In this document: positions 4,148 through 45,334 of the stretch, piece after piece
How the letters are laid out: every line of letters starts with the position of its first letter
How positions within the stretch are numbered: position 1 is the first letter of the stretch
NCBI GenBank assembly: GCA_944392445.1
Contig: CALXWT010000004.1
Span: 1-54,336 of the forward strand
Origin: an uncultured Clostridia bacterium
GTDB taxonomy: Bacteria > Bacillota > Clostridia > TANB77 > CAG-508
DNA: 54,336 bases
Direction: 5' to 3'
Notes under the pieces: generated by a model
The model's input: only the letters and a program-made list of their open reading frames with translations
Database searches by the model: none
What the model was told of the DNA's origin: nothing
Position numbers and translations under genes: made by a program

Positions 4148-4347
4148 TACAATTCATAGCCAGATTAATACCGAGAAGAAGAAGGTATTTTTTATTGTTA
4201 TTTCCAGCCCCCAACTGCGTACAAACTGTATAAATTTTCGCTAGTGCTCAATTTAACAGTTTGTAAACTTGTCGGTCCCCACCTTAAGCATTCCAATAAC
4301 AATAAAAAATACCTTCTTCTTCTCTAAAAAATAGGCTGTGAATTGTA
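4148..4347. repeat. Nested palindromic element, family A copy 1
   Basis: 30-bp perfect inverted arms 4173-4202/4295-4324 plus outer arms 4148-4161/4334-4347 around a 92-nt core shared with 52389-52480. Confidence 0.85.
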
Positions 4348-9986: not shown

Positions 9987-12398
9987 TTACTTTAATAAAT
10001 CTTCAAATTCTTTTATTGCTTCTTTATTATATTCTTCAAAATCAACATTCATTGGTTTAACTTTGTTCTCATATAATAATTTTAGCCCTTCATATACTCC
10101 CTCTTCTGAATTTTCTACTAATGTGCCTCCATATTTTTTCATAAATGTAGTAGGGCCAACAATATTAGTTGAAACCACAGGTTTGCCTAATATATCCGCT
10201 TCTGCAATAACTAATCCAAACCCCTCATAAAAAGAAGGTAATATGAAATAATCACATTTATTTAATATTGCATATGGATTACTTACATATTTTATAACAA
10301 TTATATTATTTTTGCAATTTGTTTTTTTAACTTTTTTTAATATATTCTCATATTCTTTGCCATAGCCACCAATTATTATTAGGTAAATTGAATTATCTTT
10401 GTCATATAATTTCTTAAATGCATCTATAAGTCTTTCATGACCTTTTTCTTTAGAAAATCTACCTATTGTAATAAATTTTTTGTTTTTATTATTTAATATT
10501 TGTTTTAATTCTTCTAAATCCACAGTACTTTCTGTGTTTTCATCAAATTCAATTTCCAATTTTGATTTATCTAAAACATGTTGATAATTTATAATATTAT
10601 GAACAATATGACACTTATTATTTATATCTGCAATTTTCGATATTGGCTCCCTTAAGTCTTCTGTTACTAATGCAACTTTGTTATAATGATTATATGCATA
10701 TTTTAAAACATCTAAGCTAGCATTTTTCTTAACTGTGGCCTCTTTATACATATCATTATGAGCATAAATAATTTTGTTACAAGTAAATTCACTATACATT
10801 AAAATTCTTTTTTTATCATAACCATTGAATTGGATAACATGAGCGAAATCACAATTTGGATATATTCTTTTTATATCTCTTTTTAAATCGTCTTTTAGTT
10901 CTTCAATAAAATTGTTATCATTTTTTAATTTATTATTGTACAAAAATAAGAATAATTTCTTTTTAAAATCCAAATTCATCTTGCCTTTTATTGGAATATA
11001 TCCCACATTATCTGGTATTTCTCTTAGAACACCTTTATGATTTCTTATTCTTCGAGTATCGTAAGTTATAAAATAATTTCTTTTTTCTGTATCTATGTGA
11101 TTTAGCAAATTAATTAAAGACCTTGTTATTCCATTTGCACCTAAATTACCTGCAAAAATCAGAACATTCTCTTTATTATTTCTTACAATTTTTCTATATT
11201 CTAATTGAGTTTCTTTATTCAAAATAACCTTTTCACATAATTTTTTAGTTGCATCTTTTTCATCATATTTACAATATTTTTCTAAAAATTCTTTATCATC
11301 ATAATTTTTTTCCTTATTCATTTCTGTTAATAAATCAGCTACATTATCTACCTTTGTAAAAGGAAGTTCTGAAAAAGATATATATAATCCTCTGTCTTGC
11401 AAGTATTCCTCTTCATCATACGCAAATAATATTATTTTCTTTTTGGTATTTTCAAAATCGAAAAATACGCTAGAATAATCTGTTATTAAGCAATCAGCAA
11501 TAGATAAAAATTGATATGTTTCATAATCTTTTGGAAATTTTTTTATCTTTTTTAATTTTTTATAATTTATGCTATTACTAACAAATGGATGAAGATTTAC
11601 AAAGAATTCTTGATTATCTTTTAAATTCTTATCAATTTCTTCTAAATATTTTTGTAATTGTTCTTCTTGCTCTTTTGATTCGATTTTAGAAACACTGCCT
11701 CTCCAAGTTGGCATATACATAAATATTTCTTTACCTTCCATATTTTGTTCTTTTCTAATTTTATTTTTTAATTCTTCATCAAAAAACACACTATTTCTAG
11801 GATATCCTTCTAAAATAATTTTTGCATTACTTAAATTTTGAATCATATAATCTTCTATCATATGTTCCATCATGTATTCATTTGGATATAGTAAATAGTC
11901 AGCAATAATAAAGTTCTTTTGTATGTTTCCTAAATCATGAAAATCATTGTTTACTTTTTTTCCAAGTGTTTTTAATGGTGTTCCATGCCAAGTATTAAAT
12001 ATAACTTGTCCTTCTTTTTTTATAAAACATGGATTAAATGATGTATCTGTTATTAAATACTTCGCTGTAGCTAGTAATTTATAATACTCTTTTGACTTTT
12101 CTTTTATAAGCACAATATTATTTAATCCTTGGTTCTCTAAGAATTTTCTTGCACTATTTAATGATTTCTTATTAATAGACAAATATATTTTAAAACTTTT
12201 ATATTCATCATTGTTATTTAATTCTTGTGCAATATAAAATATATTGCCAAAAATATTTCTTGCATTTTGAGCCTCTAAGAATATTACATTATTTTCTATA
12301 GATAGCTCCTCATAATCTTTAACATAAGATAATTTTGCTATATATGATTTATTAATGTTTTTAATTATTTTTCTGATTTTCAAATTAGGATCCTCCAT
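9987..12398 (-). CDS. CDP-glycerol glycerophosphotransferase (TagF family) fused to a GT4 glycosyltransferase
   Basis: TWHGTPLK, GYPRN, YMPTWR, ITDYSSVFFDF; C-terminal IGRFSKEKG and PSFYEGFGLVIAEA. Confidence 0.9.
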   Translation of the reverse strand: MEDPNLKIRKIIKNINKSYIAKLSYVKDYEELSIENNVIFLEAQNARNIFGNIFYIAQELNNNDEYKSFKIYLSINKKSLNSARKFLENQGLNNIVLIKEKSKEYYKLLATAKYLITDTSFNPCFIKKEGQVIFNTWHGTPLKTLGKKVNNDFHDLGNIQKNFIIADYLLYPNEYMMEHMIEDYMIQNLSNAKIILEGYPRNSVFFDEELKNKIRKEQNMEGKEIFMYMPTWRGSVSKIESKEQEEQLQKYLEEIDKNLKDNQEFFVNLHPFVSNSINYKKLKKIKKFPKDYETYQFLSIADCLITDYSSVFFDFENTKKKIILFAYDEEEYLQDRGLYISFSELPFTKVDNVADLLTEMNKEKNYDDKEFLEKYCKYDEKDATKKLCEKVILNKETQLEYRKIVRNNKENVLIFAGNLGANGITRSLINLLNHIDTEKRNYFITYDTRRIRNHKGVLREIPDNVGYIPIKGKMNLDFKKKLFLFLYNNKLKNDNNFIEELKDDLKRDIKRIYPNCDFAHVIQFNGYDKKRILMYSEFTCNKIIYAHNDMYKEATVKKNASLDVLKYAYNHYNKVALVTEDLREPISKIADINNKCHIVHNIINYQHVLDKSKLEIEFDENTESTVDLEELKQILNNKNKKFITIGRFSKEKGHERLIDAFKKLYDKDNSIYLIIIGGYGKEYENILKKVKKTNCKNNIIVIKYVSNPYAILNKCDYFILPSFYEGFGLVIAEADILGKPVVSTNIVGPTTFMKKYGGTLVENSEEGVYEGLKLLYENKVKPMNVDFEEYNKEAIKEFEDLLK

Positions 12399-37733: not shown

Positions 37734-37809
37734 GGCTTGATAGCTCAGTTGGTAGAGCAAGGGACTGAAAATCCCTGTGTCAGTGGTTCGATTCCACTTC
37801 AAGCCACCA
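37734..37809 (+). tRNA. tRNA-Phe(GAA), prophage integration target
   Basis: Full cloverleaf, anticodon loop CTGAAAA, CCA; 3' half duplicated at 45275. Confidence 0.97.
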
Positions 37810-37823
37810 AAAAAAGTACCTAA
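37764..37823 (+). repeat. attL core (60 bp)
   Basis: ACTGAAAATCCCTGTGTCAGTGGTTCGATTCCACTTCAAGCCACCAAAAAAAGTACCTAA, identical to 45275-45334. Confidence 0.95.
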
Positions 37824-37841
37824 AACAGGTACTATTTTTTT
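37810..37841. terminator. Terminator after tRNA-Phe, shared with the convergent integrase
   Basis: AAAAAAGTACCT-AAAAC-AGGTACTATTTTTTT. Confidence 0.75.
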
Positions 37842-38716
37842 GTTAAAAAATAAGGTATATTTGTTAATGGAGAATATTTAGAACTCATAGCAATTAAAAC
37901 CTGATTAGCTATATGTACATATATTTCAGTCATATATAAAGTTTCGTGACCTAAAATAGTTTGCAACGATAAAGGGTCTCCACCATTTATGAGAAACCAG
38001 GTAGCAAAGCTATGACGCAAATAATGTGGGTATAATGTGGAAAAATGTAAAGCATCTCTCAAGTTTAATAGTAATCTTCTAATAGCAGATGTAGTGAGTT
38101 GTATACCAGCTATATTGACAGCAAGAAAATCATAAACCTGTGGAAACTTTAAATAATTTTTAAAATAATACAAAGTAACATCAGAAAGAGGAACAATGCG
38201 TTCCTTATTACCCTTGCCATGTACTTTAATAGATTTTAAATCAATATTAATATCACCTTTTCTTAAGTTAATTACTTCAGATACTCGTAATCCACAATCA
38301 AGCATTAAACTTATCAAAAACAAATTTCTAGCACCATAAAATTCATTCTCATTATAGTATGAATATAATTCTTCTATTTGCTCCTGTGATAATATAACAA
38401 TAGTTTTCTTACCACATTTAAAATTTTCAAGTTCAGAAACAATATCCTTACTAATTAATTTTTTATTATATAAAAAATTTAAGAAAACTCGAACAGCAAT
38501 CAAAGAAGTTTTTACAGTAGCATCAGAAATATTTTTTGAAAGTAAATACAAAGTATATTGTTCATAATCAGAAGCTTTAATTTTTCTAACATTTTTATCT
38601 TTTACAAAAGTTATAAAATAACCAATTCTTTTTTTATAATATTCTATTGTTTCTAAAGAATTATGTTTTAATTTTTGATAATACAAGAATTTATCTAAAG
38701 CTTTATTACATCTCAT
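37832..38716 (-). CDS. Tyrosine recombinase / phage integrase
   Basis: Catalytic set present: GLRVSE, GKGNKERIVP, HYLRH, LGH..TEIY. Confidence 0.93.
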   Translation of the reverse strand: MRCNKALDKFLYYQKLKHNSLETIEYYKKRIGYFITFVKDKNVRKIKASDYEQYTLYLLSKNISDATVKTSLIAVRVFLNFLYNKKLISKDIVSELENFKCGKKTIVILSQEQIEELYSYYNENEFYGARNLFLISLMLDCGLRVSEVINLRKGDINIDLKSIKVHGKGNKERIVPLSDVTLYYFKNYLKFPQVYDFLAVNIAGIQLTTSAIRRLLLNLRDALHFSTLYPHYLRHSFATWFLINGGDPLSLQTILGHETLYMTEIYVHIANQVLIAMSSKYSPLTNIPYFLTKK

Positions 38717-39754
38717 TTATACAACCTCTTTCCAAGAGAATGGGTCAAAATCAATTAAACATTCATCTAAATCAATATCAATTTTTTGTGAAAAATCTAT
38801 ATTAGCTGATTTTAAATCAGCAATATTTCTATAATATACACTTTTTTTAGTTCTTTTTCTTACAATATCAAGACCATCTATAATTATACTTAAATAAAAA
38901 TTATATAATCTACTAGCTTTTAAATTACCATATAAATCATTTAATCTTTTTTCTACTTTTTCTTTAGAACGTACCTTTTTTAAATCATTATCAAATATTT
39001 TTAACAACTTCATAAATTCATCACACCAAATCTTTTTTAAATCTTTATAACTAACATTTCTAACTCTAACATATTTATTATCATAAATACTTACAAGCTT
39101 TTTCTTTTTAATTTCGACTTCAAATCTAATAAAACCCTCTATAGTCTTTAAATAATTTATAATATCAAAATTACTATTCTTAAAATTTTTTAAATCGTGC
39201 TTTTTGAACTCCTGATATTTATTATAAATTTTAAGAGTAGTAGAAGAGCCACTATAATAAATACCAGTACCTCCAAAATCTCCATAGTTACGAAGAGTTC
39301 TACGAGGATAATCGCAACTATGTAAATTATTCAAGTAATTTATAACATTTTTTTGAGTAGATAAATCAAAACAAATTGCAATATCTACACGTTGTAAAAA
39401 CCAGTGTTTAATAGAAGGAAGAACAATATTATATGAATTTTCTACAAAACTAATAAGTTTAGAACAAACTTCATATAAATTATAAAAACCGTTATGAGAA
39501 TTATAACCTTGTATAATTTTGTGTAAACTTCCCTCTATCTCAATAAAGTATTGATTAACAAATCCATACTTAGCACCATTATCTACTCGAACAGATAATG
39601 AAGAGTCATAAGAACCTTGTAGGTGGTCATTAACTATATTATAATAAATCTCACCAGTAGAATTATGATAACTAGTTTTCACAATACTATTACTTTTTAC
39701 TTTTTCATATAATACTTTATCAATCATTGTATATATTTTAACTGTATCTATCAT
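38717..39754 (-). CDS. Rolling-circle replication initiator (filamentous phage gene II/X, Rep_trans-like)
   Basis: Probable start MIDTVK at 39754; IEGSLHK, RVDIA, LKIYNKYQE, RFEVE motifs; stop abuts the integrase ATG. Confidence 0.8.
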   Translation of the reverse strand: MIDTVKIYTMIDKVLYEKVKSNSIVKTSYHNSTGEIYYNIVNDHLQGSYDSSLSVRVDNGAKYGFVNQYFIEIEGSLHKIIQGYNSHNGFYNLYEVCSKLISFVENSYNIVLPSIKHWFLQRVDIAICFDLSTQKNVINYLNNLHSCDYPRRTLRNYGDFGGTGIYYSGSSTTLKIYNKYQEFKKHDLKNFKNSNFDIINYLKTIEGFIRFEVEIKKKKLVSIYDNKYVRVRNVSYKDLKKIWCDEFMKLLKIFDNDLKKVRSKEKVEKRLNDLYGNLKASRLYNFYLSIIIDGLDIVRKRTKKSVYYRNIADLKSANIDFSQKIDIDLDECLIDFDPFSWKEVV

Positions 39755-39790
39755 ATATAACACTCTTTTCATTGCCTTTTTGTATAATTT

Positions 39791-39835
39791 GTCCCAAAAT
39801 CGGGACTCTCGGAGGGTGTTACTAAGAACCCTCCG
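39791..39835 (-). other. Candidate double-strand origin (nick-site hairpin)
   Basis: Minus strand CGGAGGGT-TCTTAGTAAC-ACCCTCCG plus a GTCCC/GGGAC hairpin, just upstream of rep. Confidence 0.6.
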
Positions 39836-39956
39836 TATCTCCATTGAGATAACTATCAATTAAAAAATCCTGATATAATTCCTTTCGATTATTATAATTT
39901 GAATGATAAATAATATAATCTTCAAGATATTTTACATATTTTAATAAAACTTCCAT
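39822..39956 (-). CDS. Small prophage protein (44 aa)
   Basis: MEVLLKYVKYLEDY...; RBS GAAAGGGG before ATG 39956. Confidence 0.55.
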   Translation of the reverse strand: MEVLLKYVKYLEDYIIYHSNYNNRKELYQDFLIDSYLNGDTEGS

Positions 39957-39979
39957 AAATGACCCCTTTCTTTTTGGTA

Positions 39980-40145
39980 GTGGAGTTGATAGTCCTACTC
40001 GGACTATGTCCTCGCCTTTACCTAACCCCATCAACTCCACAAAGAGAGAAGCTTTGGAGTAACACTCAAGCGCCGTTTAGGCTGTTAACTCCCTACGGGC
40101 TACCCACGCCCTCAAAATTGTGCTAACGCTACAATTTTTGAGGGC
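39980..40145 (-). other. Structured phage intergenic region, candidate single-strand origin/packaging signal
   Basis: GC-rich nested hairpins GTGGAGTTGAT/ATCAACTCCAC and GCCCTCAAAATTGT/ACAATTTTTGAGGGC. Confidence 0.55.
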
Positions 40146-40177
40146 TATGTGCTCACGCACGTTCACTAAACAAAATT

Positions 40178-40483
40178 TCATTTTATATTAATAAATGGCA
40201 ATTTCTTTAAAAACCAAAATACAAAACCATAAATATATTTAAAATTATAAAGTATAATTATTAAAGGTACTAAAAATTTTAATGTACTAGGTCTAACAAA
40301 AAATCCCAATAAGCTTAAATTTTCAAAAATTAAATCTAAAAAACTATAAATACTACTACTTAAAGTAGAAGGAAACTGAGGAAGAGAAATCCAACCAAAC
40401 AAAAAATCAATTAAATAATACAATCCGTTTAAAAGAGAATTCAATAAACTCCCCCAATCAAAATTAATAAGACCATCAAGCAT
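40178..40483 (-). CDS. pVI-like minor coat protein
   Basis: 101 aa, hydrophobic, basic C-terminus, coupled to the pIII-like gene. Confidence 0.65.
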   Translation of the reverse strand: MLDGLINFDWGSLLNSLLNGLYYLIDFLFGWISLPQFPSTLSSSIYSFLDLIFENLSLLGFFVRPSTLKFLVPLIIILYNFKYIYGFVFWFLKKLPFINIK

Positions 40484-42352
40484 TATTTAAAAACCTCCTC
40501 ATAAACTTTGTAGCAAAGATTAACAAATAAAAAAATTAATATAACATCAACAATAATAAAATAAATATTGTGAATAGTATTAACAATATCAATATTAAGA
40601 ATAGAATTAAAATTAAAATCAACACCATTAAAAAAAACAGTACCATCTAAGGGAGATTTTAATTCTGGTATAGTCAAAATAGGTTCATCATAATCTATAC
40701 TTGAAACTTCACTCATAAAATAATAAATGAGTTCAAAAGGATAAGTCAAAAAGCCAAAATGAAGTTTAGACCACGCAACCATTTTTGATGTAAAAATATC
40801 TATATTATCAATATTATCAGAAATAAACTGATTAATATCAACATCAATACTAGCAGTAGTATATTTATCAAGCTCAATATTATAAAATCTAAAATAATAA
40901 GTACCAGACATGACAACATCTTGATAAAAATAATAGATATCAATAGTAGAAGAACCTAAATCTTCAGATGTTTCACCTTCAGACCTACCACCACCAGACC
41001 AGCCACCACTAGGTCGTCCTAAATCTTCAATACGTCCACCACCAGACCAACCACCAGTATAATGTCCAGTAGTAAAAGTAAGAGTAGATTGGTAAGTATT
41101 ATATATTTGTTCAAAAGTCTCACCATCAGAAGAAAAATAACATTGAAGCATTATGTATTCATTAAAAATAAAAGGCTGTGTGCGTATTCTAACTGTAGTA
41201 GCATCAATATACTCTAGAAAAAGAACAGGAGTAGGGTCAAATTCTCCATTCTCATTATAATTATTATAAAAAACATCATCACCATACTGATTATCAATAC
41301 CTTTATTGGTTACATTAAAAGTTTGATAAGTAATTTCTTCAGTAGTAAGATTTTCAATTTTAAAAATATATGTACCATTAATTACAATTTCGAATTGTAA
41401 TTGAGTATAATTTTTTTGATTTTCCTCATCAGTTCCTTTTACAGAATACATAGTATATTCATAAGGACTATCTAAACCGATATGCAATTTCGATATTGTA
41501 ATTTTTTAAAAAATCTTGAGATGCATCATAATCACCTTCATAATAATATCTATTAGATAATACATAAAGAGGCTCTGTAGTTTGTTCTTCTGTAGATAAA
41601 TATAAATTTAAAGAACCAAAATCTTCATCAATTTCGGTACAATTAATAGTAAATGTATATTCTTCATCTTTTTCACTATCAACAATATTAATAGTATAAG
41701 TTCCATTCTCATAAATATCATAATAATAAACAAATTGTGTTTCATCAACATCATAATATTCCCAATTCAAACTATATACATTATCATTAGAATCCGTAAT
41801 TGTTGCAGTAATAAAACTAAATCTATCATAAGAAATAGAATTTGAACTTACTATCTGATAAAGATTTTGTTCCTCAATAAAATTTAAATCAAATCTAAAA
41901 GAGCCATTAAAGAAAATACTACCGTCTTCATTATAAATATTAATATCCGAATAAACCGTATTATAAATATTATTTCTTAAATTCATTCCTTGTATACCAT
42001 TTGGAATCATAGTTCTATTATATGTATAAGACCAATTAACCACTGTTGTAGTTTGAGGACTAGATAAATCATAATATGTAATATTTTCATTAGTAATATT
42101 TTTGAAATTAATAATAGAATCACCATCAAAAGTAGCCTCTACAGTATTTTTTGGAAAAGCAAAAGCACGAATCCAATTATCACCACTAACACCACGCCTA
42201 ACATAAATATCAAAAGAAGACTCATCAAAAGGAAAACTCAAATCATAAGTTTCATCACCAGATTTAAATGTAAGAGCGTCACATTCATTAAAATTAATTA
42301 AAAAAATAATAAATATAAAAAATACTAAAGTAAAGAAAAACTTTTTTAACAT
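40483..42352 (-). CDS. pIII-like adsorption protein, split into two overlapping ORFs (41468-42352, 40483-41487) by a +1 shift
   Basis: Signal peptide in the first ORF and TM anchor in the second; [NS]GTY repeats in both; Gly-rich linker; second ORF lacks an RBS. Confidence 0.7.
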
Positions 42353-42356
42353 AAAA

Positions 42357-42530
42357 CTACCCCTTTTTAAAAGTAATTTTTAAATAATTAAAAAGAAAGA
42401 TTACTACTAAAATAAGCAATAAAACTTGCATTAACAAATATATTTTATTAAAAGTATTTGTTAAATCTAATGTATTATCAACAACTATTTCATTAACTTC
42501 ATTTAAAGTTTCATCTAAAATATCATTCAT
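42357..42530 (-). CDS. Small minor-coat-like protein (57 aa), not in ORF track
   Basis: MNDILDETLNEVNEIVVDNTLDLTNTFNKIYLLMQVLLLILVVIFLFNYLKITFKKG; RBS AAAGGAGA; acidic N-terminus, one TM, basic C-terminus. Confidence 0.75.
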   Translation of the reverse strand: MNDILDETLNEVNEIVVDNTLDLTNTFNKIYLLMQVLLLILVVIFLFNYLKITFKKG

Positions 42531-42532
42531 AA

Positions 42533-42679
42533 TTAATCTCCTTTAAAATGTTTTGGAAAAGCAAGACTAAAAAAGAAAGTAATAAGAATATTAGCTAAAT
42601 ATAAAAATATAGCTATAGGCATAGCAGTTTTAATTAAGTCAATAAAAACATTAAAAACTTCAACATAATTTAATTCCAT
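42533..42679 (-). CDS. Small minor-coat-like protein (48 aa), not in ORF track
   Basis: MELNYVEVFNVFIDLIKTAMPIAIFLYLANILITFFFSLAFPKHFKGD; RBS AAAGGAGT. Confidence 0.75.
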   Translation of the reverse strand: MELNYVEVFNVFIDLIKTAMPIAIFLYLANILITFFFSLAFPKHFKGD

Positions 42680-42691
42680 ATTAATACTCCT

Positions 42692-43597
42692 TTACTTTAA
42701 AACTTCATTCTTTACAACAATATTATTTAAGTCATAAATATTATTTTGAGTAGTTCCTTTCCATTCTTTTCTATATCTCTTCATCTTTTTATAAGTATCA
42801 TAAGAATTATATAAATCAACAGAATGGAACCAGAAAACTCTTTTTACAGTGTTGAAACAAAGCTTTCCATTATCTTCATAAGCAGTCTCACCATCTACAA
42901 GTCTGTTATACTGTATAAATTTAAAGAAATTACGACAAATTACGACTTCTTTTATTTGTTCTCTAAGAGGTTTAGCCATTCTCATATAAACTTGTGATGT
43001 TCCTACAATATGTTTACGTTGCTTACGTTGTTGAGAAACTTCTACCATAACGTCAATTGGTATATTTTTACTTTCAAGAGAATTGAACTCAAGATGTATC
43101 TCATCAATTAAATAAAGAATACCTTCTTCGCCATTCTCAAGCTCTTTTAAACAGTTTATACCATTATACTCAATAACAATTCGACCAGAAAAGCCTATTA
43201 CTTCAAATTTTTCAATTTCAGCTTGTTGTTCTCCATCTAAATAAAAAGATTTTACTCTACGAACTAATTCATTACCTAAAAGTGTATAATATTCAACAAT
43301 ATGTTTTTCAATATTATTCTCTTTAACAGTAAAATCTTTATAGTAACAATTAATAGGATAATCACGTATTTCTACATTAGTACAAAAAATACAATTATAA
43401 TATTTGTCCAGGCATTTTTGAGAATACTGTACAGCAGAAAGTGTCTTCCCAGAACCTTGACTACCACAAAAAACCATAAGCCCATCAGGTACAAAATAAT
43501 TTGGGTGTTCTTTACCAAATTGAAGCCTATTTTTTATTACTTTAAAGAAATTGATAATATTTAAAGAACCTTTAAGTAATTCTGTATCAATAGCCAT
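42692..43597 (-). CDS. Zot/pI-family morphogenesis ATPase
   Basis: Walker A GSQGSGKT, Walker B LYLIDEIH, SQQRK..IVGTSQ..KPLRE. Confidence 0.88.
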   Translation of the reverse strand: MAIDTELLKGSLNIINFFKVIKNRLQFGKEHPNYFVPDGLMVFCGSQGSGKTLSAVQYSQKCLDKYYNCIFCTNVEIRDYPINCYYKDFTVKENNIEKHIVEYYTLLGNELVRRVKSFYLDGEQQAEIEKFEVIGFSGRIVIEYNGINCLKELENGEEGILYLIDEIHLEFNSLESKNIPIDVMVEVSQQRKQRKHIVGTSQVYMRMAKPLREQIKEVVICRNFFKFIQYNRLVDGETAYEDNGKLCFNTVKRVFWFHSVDLYNSYDTYKKMKRYRKEWKGTTQNNIYDLNNIVVKNEVLK

Positions 43598-43609
43598 ATT
43601 TATTCCTTC

Positions 43610-43747
43610 CTATAAAAACATTTTTAAAATTAAATATATAGCTAAACCATAAAGAATAATTTTAAAAATATTTTTAATAAAATAACTTAATTTCATAAGA
43701 AATCTAAAAATTTTCTTTAATAATTTTTTTAAAACAAAAAAACTCAT
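43610..43747 (-). CDS. Small basic membrane protein (45 aa), not in ORF track
   Basis: MSFFVLKKLLKKIFRFLMKLSYFIKNIFKIILYGLAIYLILKMFL; RBS GAGGT; stop sits beside the pI RBS. Confidence 0.6.
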   Translation of the reverse strand: MSFFVLKKLLKKIFRFLMKLSYFIKNIFKIILYGLAIYLILKMFL

Positions 43748-43774
43748 ATATTAAACCTCATAAAAGAGTGTCAG

Positions 43775-43839
43775 GGGGCACAATAGGATTCGAACCTATA
43801 TCACATTAATAAAAAGCTTTACCATTAAGCTATGTGCCC
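43775..43839 (-). ncRNA. tRNA-like element lacking an anticodon arm
   Basis: GGGCACA-TA-GCTT AATGGTA AAGC-16 nt-ATAGG TTCGAAT CCTAT-TGTGCCC-C. Confidence 0.8.
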
Positions 43840-43864
43840 ATAACTAAAAATAAAATTTTTAGAG

Positions 43865-43920
43865 GTTTCCTAATCGGAAACGCCAAAAGGTAAGGGAAAA
43901 AGACAAAAAGCCTTTTTCCC
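43865..43920 (-). terminator. Two hairpins downstream of the major coat gene
   Basis: GGGAAAAAG/CTTTTTCCC (43894-43920) and GTTTCC/GGAAAC (43865-43881); U tracts are weak. Confidence 0.5.
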
Positions 43921-43926
43921 ATATAA

Positions 43927-44118
43927 TTAGACTTTAAGTCTACCTCTCATAGCATTTTTTACAACGCTTATTAATTTTCTTATACCAAACCAAGTTAGAT
44001 ATAATGCAATACCACCAGCAAGGACTATACCTATGATAGTTGCAACATCTCCAGGAGATATAGATTCATTAAGAGTTGTACCAACAGTATTTAATGCATT
44101 AGTAATCTCTGCGTCCAT
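43927..44118 (-). CDS. Major coat protein (pVIII-like)
   Basis: 63 aa: acidic N-terminus, single TM (IIGIVLAGGIALYLTWFGI), basic C-terminus (RKLISVVKNAMRGRLKV); strong RBS GAAAGGAG. Confidence 0.8.
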   Translation of the reverse strand: MDAEITNALNTVGTTLNESISPGDVATIIGIVLAGGIALYLTWFGIRKLISVVKNAMRGRLKV

Positions 44119-44348
44119 AAAAAAACTCCTTTCTTTAAATTACATTTTATATAAATAGTACAAAAAGAATATAAAATATTGAAAAACCTCAATATTAAAA
44201 AGCTATATTACGCATTTTTTAAAGGGTGCTACACTCAAACGCCGTTAGGCTTGTCACTAAAACGTTTCGCCGTTTTATCACGATATAAATAGAAGGGCTA
44301 CGTAAGTAAAAGTGGTTTAAATAACAATTTATTTTAATTAACTACTTT

Positions 44349-44618
44349 TTAACGAATATCTATATCAATAAAATTAACATTCCATCTATCTTTGTTATAA
44401 TTTACTCCAAAAGTAATAACAACATCTTCTAATGCATTTAAATCTAATTCTAGAACTTTATTTTTATATTTACCAAAAATCATAAAAGAGCAAGGATTGT
44501 TATTACAATCTAATAAATTTAATTTTAAAAATGTTTTATCTTCTTCCTTTAATTCATCTGCATTTCTTCTCGCTATCTCTTGTATATTTAAAATTTTAAA
44601 ATTTGAACTATATTCCAT
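44349..44618 (-). CDS. ssDNA-binding protein (pV-like)
   Basis: 89 aa, beta-strand-rich pattern, first gene of the leftward phage operon. Call is by size and position. Confidence 0.6.
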   Translation of the reverse strand: MEYSSNFKILNIQEIARRNADELKEEDKTFLKLNLLDCNNNPCSFMIFGKYKNKVLELDLNALEDVVITFGVNYNKDRWNVNFIDIDIR

Positions 44619-44673
44619 ATTAAAAACATTCCTTTCTAATTAACTATAAGTAATATTCACAACATCTTTATTT

Positions 44674-44751
44674 ATACAATTATTTAGTTGTATTTTCAAA
44701 AACAGTATACAACTAATTTGTTGTATTGTCAATACAATTATTTAATTGTAT
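44674..44751. promoter_or_regulatory. Three repressor operators ATACAA-N8-TTGTAT and a leftward sigma-A promoter
   Basis: Operators at 44674-44693, 44707-44726, 44732-44751; minus-strand TTGACA (44727-44732)-17 bp-TATACT (44704-44709). Confidence 0.85.
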
Positions 44752-44778
44752 TGTAAAATTTTTATAGAGGTGATACAG

Positions 44779-45012
44779 TTGAGTAAAACTAGATTAAAAG
44801 ATTTAAGAGAAGATAAAGACTTGTATCAAAAAGATATAGCTAAAATATTAAATATAAAACAACAACAATATTCCAGATATGAAACAGATGAAACAGAAAT
44901 AAGTGTAACATTATTAAAAGAATTAGCTTTATTTTATAAAACAAGTACTGATTATATCTTAAAATTAACAGATGAAAATAAACCGTATCCACGAAAGAAA
45001 GGGGAAAAATAA
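44779..45012 (+). CDS. XRE-family HTH repressor
   Basis: RLKDLREDKDLYQKDIAKILNIKQQQYSRYE..STDYIL; probable TTG start at 44779 with GAGGTG RBS. Confidence 0.9.
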   Translation: MSKTRLKDLREDKDLYQKDIAKILNIKQQQYSRYETDETEISVTLLKELALFYKTSTDYILKLTDENKPYPRKKGEK

Positions 45013-45279
45013 ATGTACACAGATTTAAAAACATATCTAATGCATATACAAATGTTAGAAATAATAAATATAATAACTTATGGCTTAATAATAATAGTAC
45101 CATCATTAATAACCAAAATATATACAGATAATCTAAAATATACACTAATAGTATTTATTATATGTACAATAGTTGGATACTTAATATATGCAACAAATCA
45201 AATAAAAGCAGATAATCATAAATTACAAATAGATATGTATTTACAATTAAAAGAAATAAAAAAAGAAGGGAAAAACTGA
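45013..45279 (+). CDS. Two-TM prophage membrane protein
   Basis: ATG directly follows the repressor TAA; TGA lies inside attR. Confidence 0.7.
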   Translation: MYTDLKTYLMHIQMLEIINIITYGLIIIVPSLITKIYTDNLKYTLIVFIICTIVGYLIYATNQIKADNHKLQIDMYLQLKEIKKEGKN

Positions 45280-45334
45280 AAATCCCTGTGTCAGTGGTTC
45301 GATTCCACTTCAAGCCACCAAAAAAAGTACCTAA
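45275..45334 (+). repeat. attR core (3' half of tRNA-Phe)
   Basis: Identical to 37764-37823; followed by terminator arm AGGTACTATTTTTT. Confidence 0.95.

Follow-up and report, generated by a model that had tools for sequence, protein, structure and literature searches.

A probable temperate inovirus with a split pIII-like gene in the tRNA-Phe gene of an uncultured Clostridia bacterium

The element at the tRNA-Phe locus and its relatives

The stretch of DNA analyzed here (the window; 54,336 nucleotides (nt) of contig CALXWT010000004.1 from an uncultured Clostridia bacterium) carries an integrated element of 7,511 bp at the 3' end of a host tRNA-Phe gene, and this element is present as one copy in its own 1.64-Mb, 92-contig genome (G000). 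The element is very probably a temperate inovirus (Tubulavirales) of the type associated with monoderm gut Firmicutes, and its pIII-like adsorption gene is split into two open reading frames (ORFs). The coordinates of all features are collected in Table 1. The tRNA-Phe gene is the final gene of a Val-Asp-Phe tRNA cluster (ARAGORN, Rfam). The att core is a perfect 60-nt direct repeat with a start-to-start distance of 7511; it begins at position 31 of tRNA-Phe, in the anticodon loop, and spans the 3' 46 nt of the tRNA and 14 nt downstream. The repeat search, ARAGORN and Rfam thus bore out the first-pass annotation, in which a 60-bp perfect repeat from the tRNA-Phe anticodon loop had been described as enclosing 7511 bp. 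A terminator hairpin is preserved at each junction, with its 5' arm (AGTACCT) within the repeat and its 3' arm outside, so that integration restores the tRNA together with its terminator.

Table 1. Features of the element and its attachment site, in window positions (aa, amino acids; TM, transmembrane; SD, Shine-Dalgarno sequence; ssDNA, single-stranded DNA; HTH, helix-turn-helix; OB, oligonucleotide/oligosaccharide-binding; L030 and L031, related loci described in the text)
Feature	Coordinates	Strand	Basis
Host tRNA-Phe(GAA)	37734..37809	+	ARAGORN; Rfam RF00005, 73.5 bits
attL, first 60-bp copy, includes the 3' 46 nt of tRNA-Phe	37764..37823	+	Repeat search, sequence inspection
Tyrosine integrase, XerC/XerD-like, 294 aa	37832..38716	-	PF00589, 113.1 bits (cut-off 27.1); SAM-like N-domain
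Rep, gpII/X-family rolling-circle initiator, longest ORF 380 aa	38717..39859	-	PF05144, TIGR01629
Hairpin-rich, relatively GC-rich intergenic region before Rep (320-420 nt)	39755..40177	-	ssDNA fold
101-aa hydrophobic protein, pVI-like by position and hydropathy only	40178..40483	-	TM segments at 58-92
p334, pIII-like C-terminal part	40483..41487	-	Aligns to residues 290-593 of the L030 ORF, 50% identity
Candidate shift site TAT CGG TTT AGA TAG	41468..41482	-	Alignment with L030 and L031
p294, pIII-like N-terminal part	41468..42352	-	Residues 187-293 align to 185-291 of the L030 593-aa ORF
57-aa single-TM protein, candidate minor coat or assembly protein	42357..42530	-	TM 25-56, SD AGGAG
48-aa single-TM protein directly downstream of the ATPase	42533..42679	-	TM, SD
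Short pI/Zot-like morphogenesis ATPase, 301 aa	42692..43597	-	tblastn to inovirus 'Zot'/'ATPase'
45-aa single-TM protein	43610..43747	-	TM 23-45, SD GAGG; homologue in L031 only (79 loci)
65-nt tRNA-like element	43775..43839	-	Rfam RF00005, 52.7 bits (gathering score 29)
Strong intrinsic terminator right after the 63-aa coat gene	43894..43920	-	11-bp stem, then T run
63-aa pVIII-like major coat candidate	43927..44118	-	TM 20-47, SD AGGAG, position
89-aa OB-fold protein (p89), pV-like ssDNA-binding candidate	44349..44618	-	AlphaFold2 model
Three 20-bp palindromes ATACAA-N8-TTGTAT, candidate operators, over divergent promoters	44674..44751	.	Repeat and pattern search
Cro/C1-type HTH repressor, divergent from the structural genes	44746..45012	+	PF01381, 48.9 bits; phrog_8, 1.4e-15
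88-aa two-TM protein	45013..45279	+	ORF and TM segments; stop codon inside the att core
attR, second 60-bp copy, displaced 3' part of tRNA-Phe	45275..45334	+	Repeat search, sequence inspection

The integrase gene starts with an ATG immediately after the Rep stop codon, is preceded by the SD sequence GAGG at -12 and lies 9 bp from attL. The protein matched phrog_1 (4.8e-44) and, under their equivalog cut-offs, the XerC/XerD models of NCBIfam (1e-51). Its translation shows the motifs R..K..HxxR..H..Y, which we take to mark the catalytic positions, as judged from the general motifs and not from an alignment with solved enzymes. Rep scored 67.8 bits with PF05144 (cut-off 21.7) and 58.8 bits with TIGR01629 (cut-off 29), and matched phrog_702 at 1.9e-28; its C-terminal domain, PF05155, reached 22.4 bits, under the cut-off of 25. 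Three starts are available to Rep (TTG 39859, ATG 39772 and ATG 39754); its homologues align from residue 35, and one of the two ATG codons is the likely start. In the phage collection, Rep matched only four records of Lentisphaerae phage WC36-1, at 27%.

The ATPase carries the Walker A motif GSQGSGKT and the Walker B motif LIDEIH, both of which are invariant in an 18-member alignment. It is 41-52% identical over 71-97% of the length to genes named 'Zonula occludens toxin' or 'ATPase' in 19 records filed under inoviruses, which come from rodent and pig faeces. It also matched phrog_197 (3.4e-5). The AlphaFold model (pLDDT 74) had as its top Foldseek match in the PDB the N-domain of Neisseria Zot (2r2a, E 8.6e-5), with a narrow lead over P-loop proteins of the RecA/RadA type, and a PDB sequence search with the pI profile returned generic P-loop matches only (E >= 0.016). 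In a HMMER search of 1.84 billion representatives, 503 representative relatives passed E <= 0.001, of which 285 also passed E <= 1e-10; of the 150 relatives that were listed, the majority measure 200-300 aa. The protein is a short, soluble pI, and the family name Zot implies no toxin activity. As a separate observation, a beta-rich insert of ~45 residues (window 43210-43350, residues ~84-130) lies between Walker A and Walker B; of the 18 family members in the alignment, 6 have it (the window protein plus 5 others) and the rest do not. Together with PF05144, TIGR01629 and PF00589, the ATPase identities agree with the first-pass view that a prophage of the inovirus type, encoding an integrase, resides in a Clostridia-like host.

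The 14 proteins of the element were compared by tblastn with 79 loci found via the ATPase, namely 63 loci in genomes (for the most part under the titles uncultured Clostridia or Clostridium, but including isolates, e.g., Enterocloster and Lacrimispora) and 16 IMG/VR contigs. All 79 loci matched pI, 60 the 101-aa protein, 44 p334, 44 the 63-aa protein and 33 the 48-aa protein; the integrase was matched in 22 (anywhere in the flanks), the HTH repressor in 21 and Rep in 7. Gene order was constant wherever several genes were present. The order coat, pI, 48-aa protein, pIII-like and pVI-like is common to bajarodino virus 41 and 44-60 of the 79 loci, and an arrangement that looks odd beside the Ff phages is therefore the rule in this gut Firmicute clade. 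Among 40 host relatives, 5 carry the ATPase. The closest copies (G007 and G023, 78-80%) share Rep and the structural genes with the element, lie at another location and have no tRNA or adjacent integrase.

The nearest described genomes are circular faecal ones of 4.2-8.8 kb, bajarodino virus 41 (PQ006142.1) and porcine 'Inovirus sp.' (e.g., MT135286.1), to which the above range of pI identity applies, over 89-97% of the length. It is through homology to these records, deposited as circular complete genomes, that a filamentous virion with a circular ssDNA genome is predicted for the element. Bajarodino virus 41 has homologues of five element proteins, including the pIII-like C-terminus (31%), in the same order, with Rep last and no secretin. 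These homologues in circular inovirus records upheld the earlier reading of the small proteins as coat-like. In contrast to the element, bajarodino virus 41 has no annotated integrase, its Rep is unrelated (tblastn 1e-3) and its pIII-like protein is encoded by one 522-aa ORF; records of this type also have no tRNA att site and no tRNA-like element (L001, L002). Whole-element blastn against phages returned no record covering at least 80% (the best covered 6%), and no paper on bajarodino viruses was found in the literature searched, which did not cover subscription journals.

Inoviruses were detected by Roux et al. (2019, PMC6813254), in the portion of that paper used here, as a pI-like ATPase, the FtsK-HerA superfamily marker, accompanied by 30-90-aa single-TM proteins, with a canonical att site defined as a direct repeat of at least 10 bp located within a tRNA or beside an integrase and reported for 582 genome prophages. 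The element has a pI-like ATPase, short single-TM proteins and such an att site. The same portion places the inoviruses of monoderm hosts in separate candidate families without diderm features, for which no secretin is expected, and already catalogs tRNA-integrated, integrase-bearing inovirus prophages as a class (PMC6813254). The gene order and missing secretin that the first-pass annotation had contrasted with Ff phages are the norm for this clade, and its inference of an undescribed inovirus is not supported as far as the class goes. In pig viromes, according to the part of PMC9723715 consulted, 344 inovirus contigs had predicted Firmicute hosts, mostly Clostridium and Lachnospiraceae; these viruses and Propionibacterium phage B5 resemble the element in having Gram-positive hosts, a short gpI, small TM structural genes, ssb and rep (PMC9723715). 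A match of the window ATPase to B5 was not found in the phage collection at E <= 0.01.

Among the classical filamentous phages, Ff (M13/fd/f1) resembles the element in its functional set. Both have a Rep of the gpII family (PF05144), a known or predicted ssDNA-binding protein, a terminator behind the major coat gene, a pI ATPase, a structured stretch between genes and a pIII-like protein in which Gly-rich linkers are combined with an anchor at the C-terminus. The element differs from Ff in having an integrase and a repressor, another gene order and a pI without the TM and periplasmic part. CTXphi-type phages share the divergent HTH repressor beside the replication and integration genes and the Zot-family ATPase, but CTXphi uses the host XerCD at dif, whereas the element encodes an integrase and has its att site in a tRNA, and Vibrio Zot has a C-terminal region that the element ATPase lacks. 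The Ff and CTXphi features in this comparison are general background. None of the 14 ORFs matched the secretin (pIV) family or the Ff gV, gVIII or gIII families of Pfam at E <= 0.1.

The split pIII-like gene

The first-pass annotation had read the minus-strand genes as a single leftward operon with one pIII-like gene. The minus-strand ORFs were found as claimed, but two large ORFs, p294 and p334, occupy the pIII-like position, and one plain, uninterrupted operon is contradicted by the terminator after the 63-aa coat gene and the hairpin-rich gap before Rep. The two ORFs are in different frames and overlap by 20 nt. p294 has a TM segment or signal peptide at residues 1-29, followed by a variable N-terminal domain, and ends 3 codons past a CGG codon. 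p334 has Gly-rich GGWSGGGR linkers and a C-terminal TM anchor (residues 299-333). No signal peptide was found in p334, and no SD precedes either of its candidate starts.

The intact counterpart was identified at L030, a locus of genome G023, where a single 593-aa ORF with a signal peptide and a C-terminal anchor lies between the small TM proteins and the 101-aa gene; this ORF matched no Pfam family. Further unsplit close forms are P0017 (IEIAYGLESSYEY), P0018, P0020 and P0022. Compared with the unsplit homologue, the window has an extra C at 41479, which changes TAT-GGT to TAT-C-GGT, and the protein sequence continues with the GGT of the +1 frame. The same extra base was found at L031, a contig of an independent metagenome-assembled genome (MAG) (pI 97% identical, 89% nt identity locally), and an assembly error was rejected on this ground. 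Transcriptional slippage was also rejected, as there is no homopolymer run at the site. The p294 counterpart of L031 has an unrelated but open N-terminal domain of 305 aa.

The split recurs in 13 protein clusters (5 of the p334 type and 8 of the p294 type), with both halves open. The five p334-type clusters are 77-100% identical and 334-349 aa long and start at the same junction, and all eight p294-type clusters end with AYR[F/L]R*. This ending is kept even in L031, P0040 and P0041, in which the N-terminal domain has been swapped for unrelated sequence. At the DNA level, the shift site was seen in the window and L031; the other clusters were compared at the protein level. For the two most diverged p334 forms, a neutral estimate gave a probability of ~0.03-0.07 that no stop codon would have arisen. 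This estimate is rough and deliberately conservative, because only amino-acid differences were counted as substitutions.

Among the 331,484 codons of 713 long ORFs, CGG occurs 65 times (0.2 per 1000), which makes it the rarest Arg codon in the genome, and the genes of the element use it once, at the shift site. tRNA-Arg(CCG) was not found in G000 or among the 35 tRNAs of the closed genome G024, both lists being incomplete (Ala and Ile are missing from the former and Asn from the latter). The Arg tRNAs seen carry the anticodons ACG, CCT and TCT. CGG may be near-unassigned in this genus. The codon argument is weak by itself, because a rare codon is expected in any shifted frame, and the weight lies on conservation. 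Scans for the shift-site pattern returned the L031 contig only among genome contigs, nothing among viral contigs and, with the strict pattern, nothing among metagenome contigs. A looser pattern gave 15 matches in metagenome contigs, none of which encodes a p294 or p334 homologue, and these were dismissed as chance.

We tentatively propose that expression of the pIII-like gene involves a programmed +1 ribosomal frameshift at TAT-CGG-T, a mechanism suggested by the sequence and conservation of the junction and to which we assign somewhat less than an even chance. Ribosomes would stall at CGG, and the next tRNA would read GGT (Gly). Two products would result, a secreted N-terminal receptor-binding protein (p294) and, at a lower rate, the full-length anchored virion protein. 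In glass-sponge mitochondria, as described in the part of PMC5009743 used here, +1 frameshifting occurs at the very rare codons CGG and UGG, where a C or T is inserted before GGA. In both systems a single base 5' of a GGN Gly codon creates a rare CGG (here C before GGT). The sponge sites are mitochondrial, whereas the present one lies in a bacterial phage gene and the case for it is built on conservation. No report of recoding in an inovirus was found in the literature searched, subscription journals not being covered.

Small proteins, cis signals and integration setting

TM segments were assigned with a Kyte-Doolittle window and not with TMHMM. A single hydrophobic segment and an SD were found for each of the 63-, 45-, 48- and 57-aa ORFs. 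The 63-aa coat candidate has an acidic N-terminus, one TM helix and a basic C-terminus, and no signal peptide; its homologues lie just upstream of pI every time, and it is 37% identical to a 67-aa ORF of bajarodino virus 41. Homologues of the 48-aa protein always come right after pI (31% to a 49-aa ORF of bajarodino virus 41), and this protein is a candidate membrane partner of the soluble ATPase. A homologue of the 57-aa protein was found in L031 only among the 79 loci. The 101-aa protein is the second most conserved gene of the module (44% to a 98-aa ORF of bajarodino virus 41) and matched nothing in Pfam, PHROG or NCBIfam. The Protein Atlas gave leads only, namely a Hofneiviricota cluster (0.93) and Phage_coatGP8 (0.87) for p63 and DUF2523 (0.79) for p101; the Phage_coatGP8 and DUF2523 leads fell below the trust level of the tool.

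The AlphaFold2 model of p89 (pLDDT 92.7) showed a five-strand OB barrel with beta1-3/alpha/beta4-5 topology. Its structural neighbors are SSB, PriB and Rim1 chains (VIA Z 7-8.9), and the best Foldseek match was PrgE (5.8e-3). A gene V chain is not among the listed structure rows, an absence that does not exclude likeness. p89 matched no family of Pfam, PHROG or NCBIfam and has just 11 homologue clusters. On the basis of the model, p89 would bind ssDNA.

The hairpin-rich region before Rep folded as ssDNA with -60.7 kcal/mol (z = -6.39), and 0 of 100 shuffles were equally stable; it is a candidate origin or packaging-signal region. In contrast, the 230-nt gap between p89 and p63 has no unusual structure (z = -0.49). 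Part of this gap, a non-coding stretch of 49 nt (window 44234-44282), is a 90% match to positions 11568-11616 of the related locus L092, where the stretch sits between Rep and a gene resembling the 101-aa one. A mobile cis element, for instance an origin or a nick site, is a possible reading of this stretch. The terminator scan found 5 terminator-like sites against 1.3 expected. Ff phages also have a terminator after gene VIII.

The repressor had the RstR family as its best NCBIfam match (49.2 bits, under the cut-off of 80), and its start, judged from the upstream GAGGTG, is probably TTG 44779. The palindrome pattern has three matches in the window, all at this site, against 0.98 expected; three were reached in 5 of 100 shuffles. 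The palindromes overlap two promoters, one leftward and close to consensus (TTGACA-17-TATACT, 44732-44704), the other rightward and weaker. The 88-aa protein is co-transcribed with the repressor, and 48% homologues adjoin Rep in L029 and L030; it may have a role in superinfection exclusion or in lysogeny.

The tRNA-like element lies between the post-coat terminator and the 45-aa gene and was not called by ARAGORN. It has a perfect acceptor stem as well as a D arm and a T arm, and the anticodon arm is cut to ~11 nt; the minimum free energy fold is a cloverleaf with a 4-bp mini-arm. It is also present in the near-identical phage of L031 and absent from 10 other related loci, including L001, L002 and L088, and a second copy was not found in the host genome. 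As pure conjecture, it may be linked to the frameshift or serve as an mRNA-processing signal.

To the right of the element lies a TraX-like gene with homologues in 40 of the 41 genomes searched, including the window's own. The empty site was identified at L009 in G011, a genome of the same genus and the closest relative (TraX 72% identity), in which the Val-Asp-Phe tRNAs are followed directly by TraX and the tRNA 3' part is identical to the 60-bp repeat. Related Rep and integrase prophages occupy the same tRNA-Phe in three Clostridia MAGs (L088, L091 and L092), with 68-73% nt identity. They are 7.2-8.0 kb long, have repeats of 47-78 nt and match the element at 65-66% aa identity in the integrase and 50-65% in Rep. 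They share the Rep-Int pair and the Val-Asp-Phe target, and the att boundary of L092 is likewise at the anticodon loop, but their structural genes are less closely related to those of the element (pI 55-66% over the best segment, p334 25-29%). The reuse of one tRNA site by related integrases across genomes is good indirect evidence of a working integration system.

Several observations concern the neighborhoods of the related phages. L031, the MAG locus with the 97%-identical phage, is rearranged relative to the window: in L031 2613-6302, a surface protein of 412 aa bearing a PKTG sorting signal comes after the dapF-sortase flank, and the phage attR end then follows in reversed orientation, with no tRNA cluster between flank and attR. 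L029 (G007:C14) is a related inovirus prophage (pI 80%, Rep 70%) that lacks both a tRNA site and a neighboring integrase. An imperfect direct repeat of 75 nt flanks it (4238-4312 and 10327-10401; 79% identity, 6,089 bp apart), which suggests another integration route. Upstream of this prophage, at L029 162-256, there is a match to the Rfam pemK cis-regulatory RNA (41.9 bits, gathering score 34.8). In L092 (7998-14246), pI, Rep and the integrase are each in two or three ORFs, which reflects either a decayed copy or poor assembly.

The first-pass annotation had also contrasted a T-rich coding strand of the phage with A-rich host genes. The leftward genes have T 0.396 and A 0.348 on the coding strand, and the skew flips at the element; in dapF, sortase and S41, host genes on the flanks, A is 0.405-0.444 and T is 0.231-0.270. 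The contrast therefore stands against soluble host genes, but it is not phage-specific, because the host membrane-protein gene TraX is equally T-rich (T 0.45); the signal is partly that of hydrophobic proteins. Of the 22 sequencing runs listed, 20 contain the stretch or part of it as contigs; they are mostly chicken-gut metagenomes (best share 0.84), and the runs with a small share (0.11-0.15) have no bearing on habitat or empty sites.

Proposed life cycle, alternatives and significance

The integrase, gpII-family Rep, Zot-like ATPase, HTH repressor, OB fold of p89, small TM proteins, att repeat and empty site are identities returned by the tools, and the steps of the following mechanism were inferred from them. 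The XerC/D-like integrase would recombine an attP identical to the last 46 nt of tRNA-Phe and 14 nt downstream, rebuilding the tRNA and the terminator. Lysogeny would be maintained by the HTH repressor bound to the three palindromes that cover the divergent promoters. Upon derepression, leftward transcription would yield the OB-fold protein and the 63-aa coat protein in excess, as we propose, because the strong terminator follows, and read-through would supply the 45-aa protein, the pI ATPase, its small TM partners and the pIII-like and pVI-like proteins. Rep would nick the hairpin-rich intergenic region and start rolling-circle replication, with the integrase translationally coupled to Rep. 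Virion release would proceed by extrusion across the single membrane, with no secretin involved, and a full-length pIII-like protein with signal peptide and anchor would need the +1 shift at TAT-CGG-T.

Several findings weigh against this reading. The window ATPase scored only 16.7 bits with Pfam Zot (PF05707), below the cut-off of 20.3, so that the Zot/pI check proposed in the first-pass annotation was passed by the relatives (16 of 18 family members match at E <= 0.01, best E 2e-7) but not by the window protein; the family link therefore runs through the clade and not through this sequence alone. No hydrophobic or TM segment was found in the 301 aa of the ATPase, which lacks the TM and C-terminal part of canonical pI; in Ff pI and Vibrio Zot, a TM helix and a C-terminal extracytoplasmic domain follow the ATPase domain. 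The coat, pVI-, pV- and pIII-like genes matched no curated family (Pfam, PHROG, NCBIfam), and they were assigned from size, hydropathy, position and homology to ORFs that inovirus records leave unannotated. Of 11 loci from relatives scanned for tRNAs, one showed the empty site; in the other 10, the tRNA cluster was not found near TraX, and in G024, a closed genome of the same genus, cluster and TraX lie far from each other. The synteny is thus local to the nearest relatives. Related copies are decayed, both L092 and L029 (a different frameshift in the pIII-like gene and a broken 101-aa gene). An integrative rolling-circle plasmid or mobilizable element with a Zot-like ATPase and small membrane proteins would account for the missing coat-family match, for an element seen only as DNA and for a Rep whose family is also named 'phage/plasmid' (TIGR01629). 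We consider this highly improbable: the ATPase and four neighbors have homologues, in the same arrangement, in circular records that were deposited as complete inovirus genomes from faecal samples, the detection features given in the consulted portion of PMC6813254 are all present, and a relaxase or conjugation gene was not found among the 14 ORFs (Pfam, PHROG).

The frameshift in the pIII-like gene relative to its intact homologues also weighs against an intact phage, since the prophage may be incapable of producing infectious virions, and it leads to the question of how the split is to be read. The extra C could be an inherited inactivating mutation in a vertically inherited remnant that yields no infectious virions, perhaps still replicating or excising. 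The unsplit forms in L030 and in P0017, P0018, P0020 and P0022 fit such a remnant, as do the decayed copies at L029 and L092 and a p334 without its own signal peptide or SD; a rare codon in the shifted frame is expected by chance, as ~1 in 4 inserted bases gives CGG before GG. We nevertheless regard a remnant as less likely than not. No other gene of the element (pI, Rep, the integrase with its catalytic residues, the small genes) is shortened relative to its homologues, the att repeats show no mismatch, and the recurrence of the split with open halves in both sets of clusters, its retention where the N-terminal domain was replaced by unrelated intact domains and the low, roughly estimated neutral probability of the open p334 frames speak against decay. 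The two halves could instead be separate proteins, with p294 secreted and p334 reinitiated after the p294 stop (41468-41470), which is 20 nt from a conserved ATG at p334 codon 13; the conservation of both ORFs would suit this arrangement equally. It is improbable, however, because p334 would have no signal peptide for an ectodomain of ~300 aa and no SD, when 11 of the 12 other starts have an SD-like motif or the purine-rich AAGGGG, and because GLDSPYEYT, upstream of that ATG, stays conserved in the +1 frame.

The element belongs to a cataloged group of gut inoviruses: its ATPase is akin to those of circular gut-virome inovirus genomes with the same gene order and has 503 representative relatives in public data, and tRNA-integrated inovirus prophages were cataloged by Roux et al. 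in 2019. Its one unusual trait is the split adsorption gene. As a whole it will not surprise a specialist, as thousands of such prophages, tRNA-integrated ones included, were cataloged in 2019. For the inoviruses of Gram-positive gut anaerobes, nearly all knowledge comes from sequence, and the consulted part of PMC9723715 reports no Clostridia inovirus that has been grown and has a sequenced genome. With clean ends, att sites, an empty-site comparator, candidate operators and a full gene set, the element is a usable reference for the integrase-bearing branch of the clade, and it offers a compact integrase/attP pair for the conserved tRNA-Phe of low-GC Clostridia. If the +1 frameshift is true, the tRNA repertoire of the host would be tied to virion infectivity, and the site would be a simple, testable recoding site in a bacterial group with few known. 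It would then be the first recoding event described in a filamentous phage and a bacterial parallel to the CGG/UGG sites of glass sponges.

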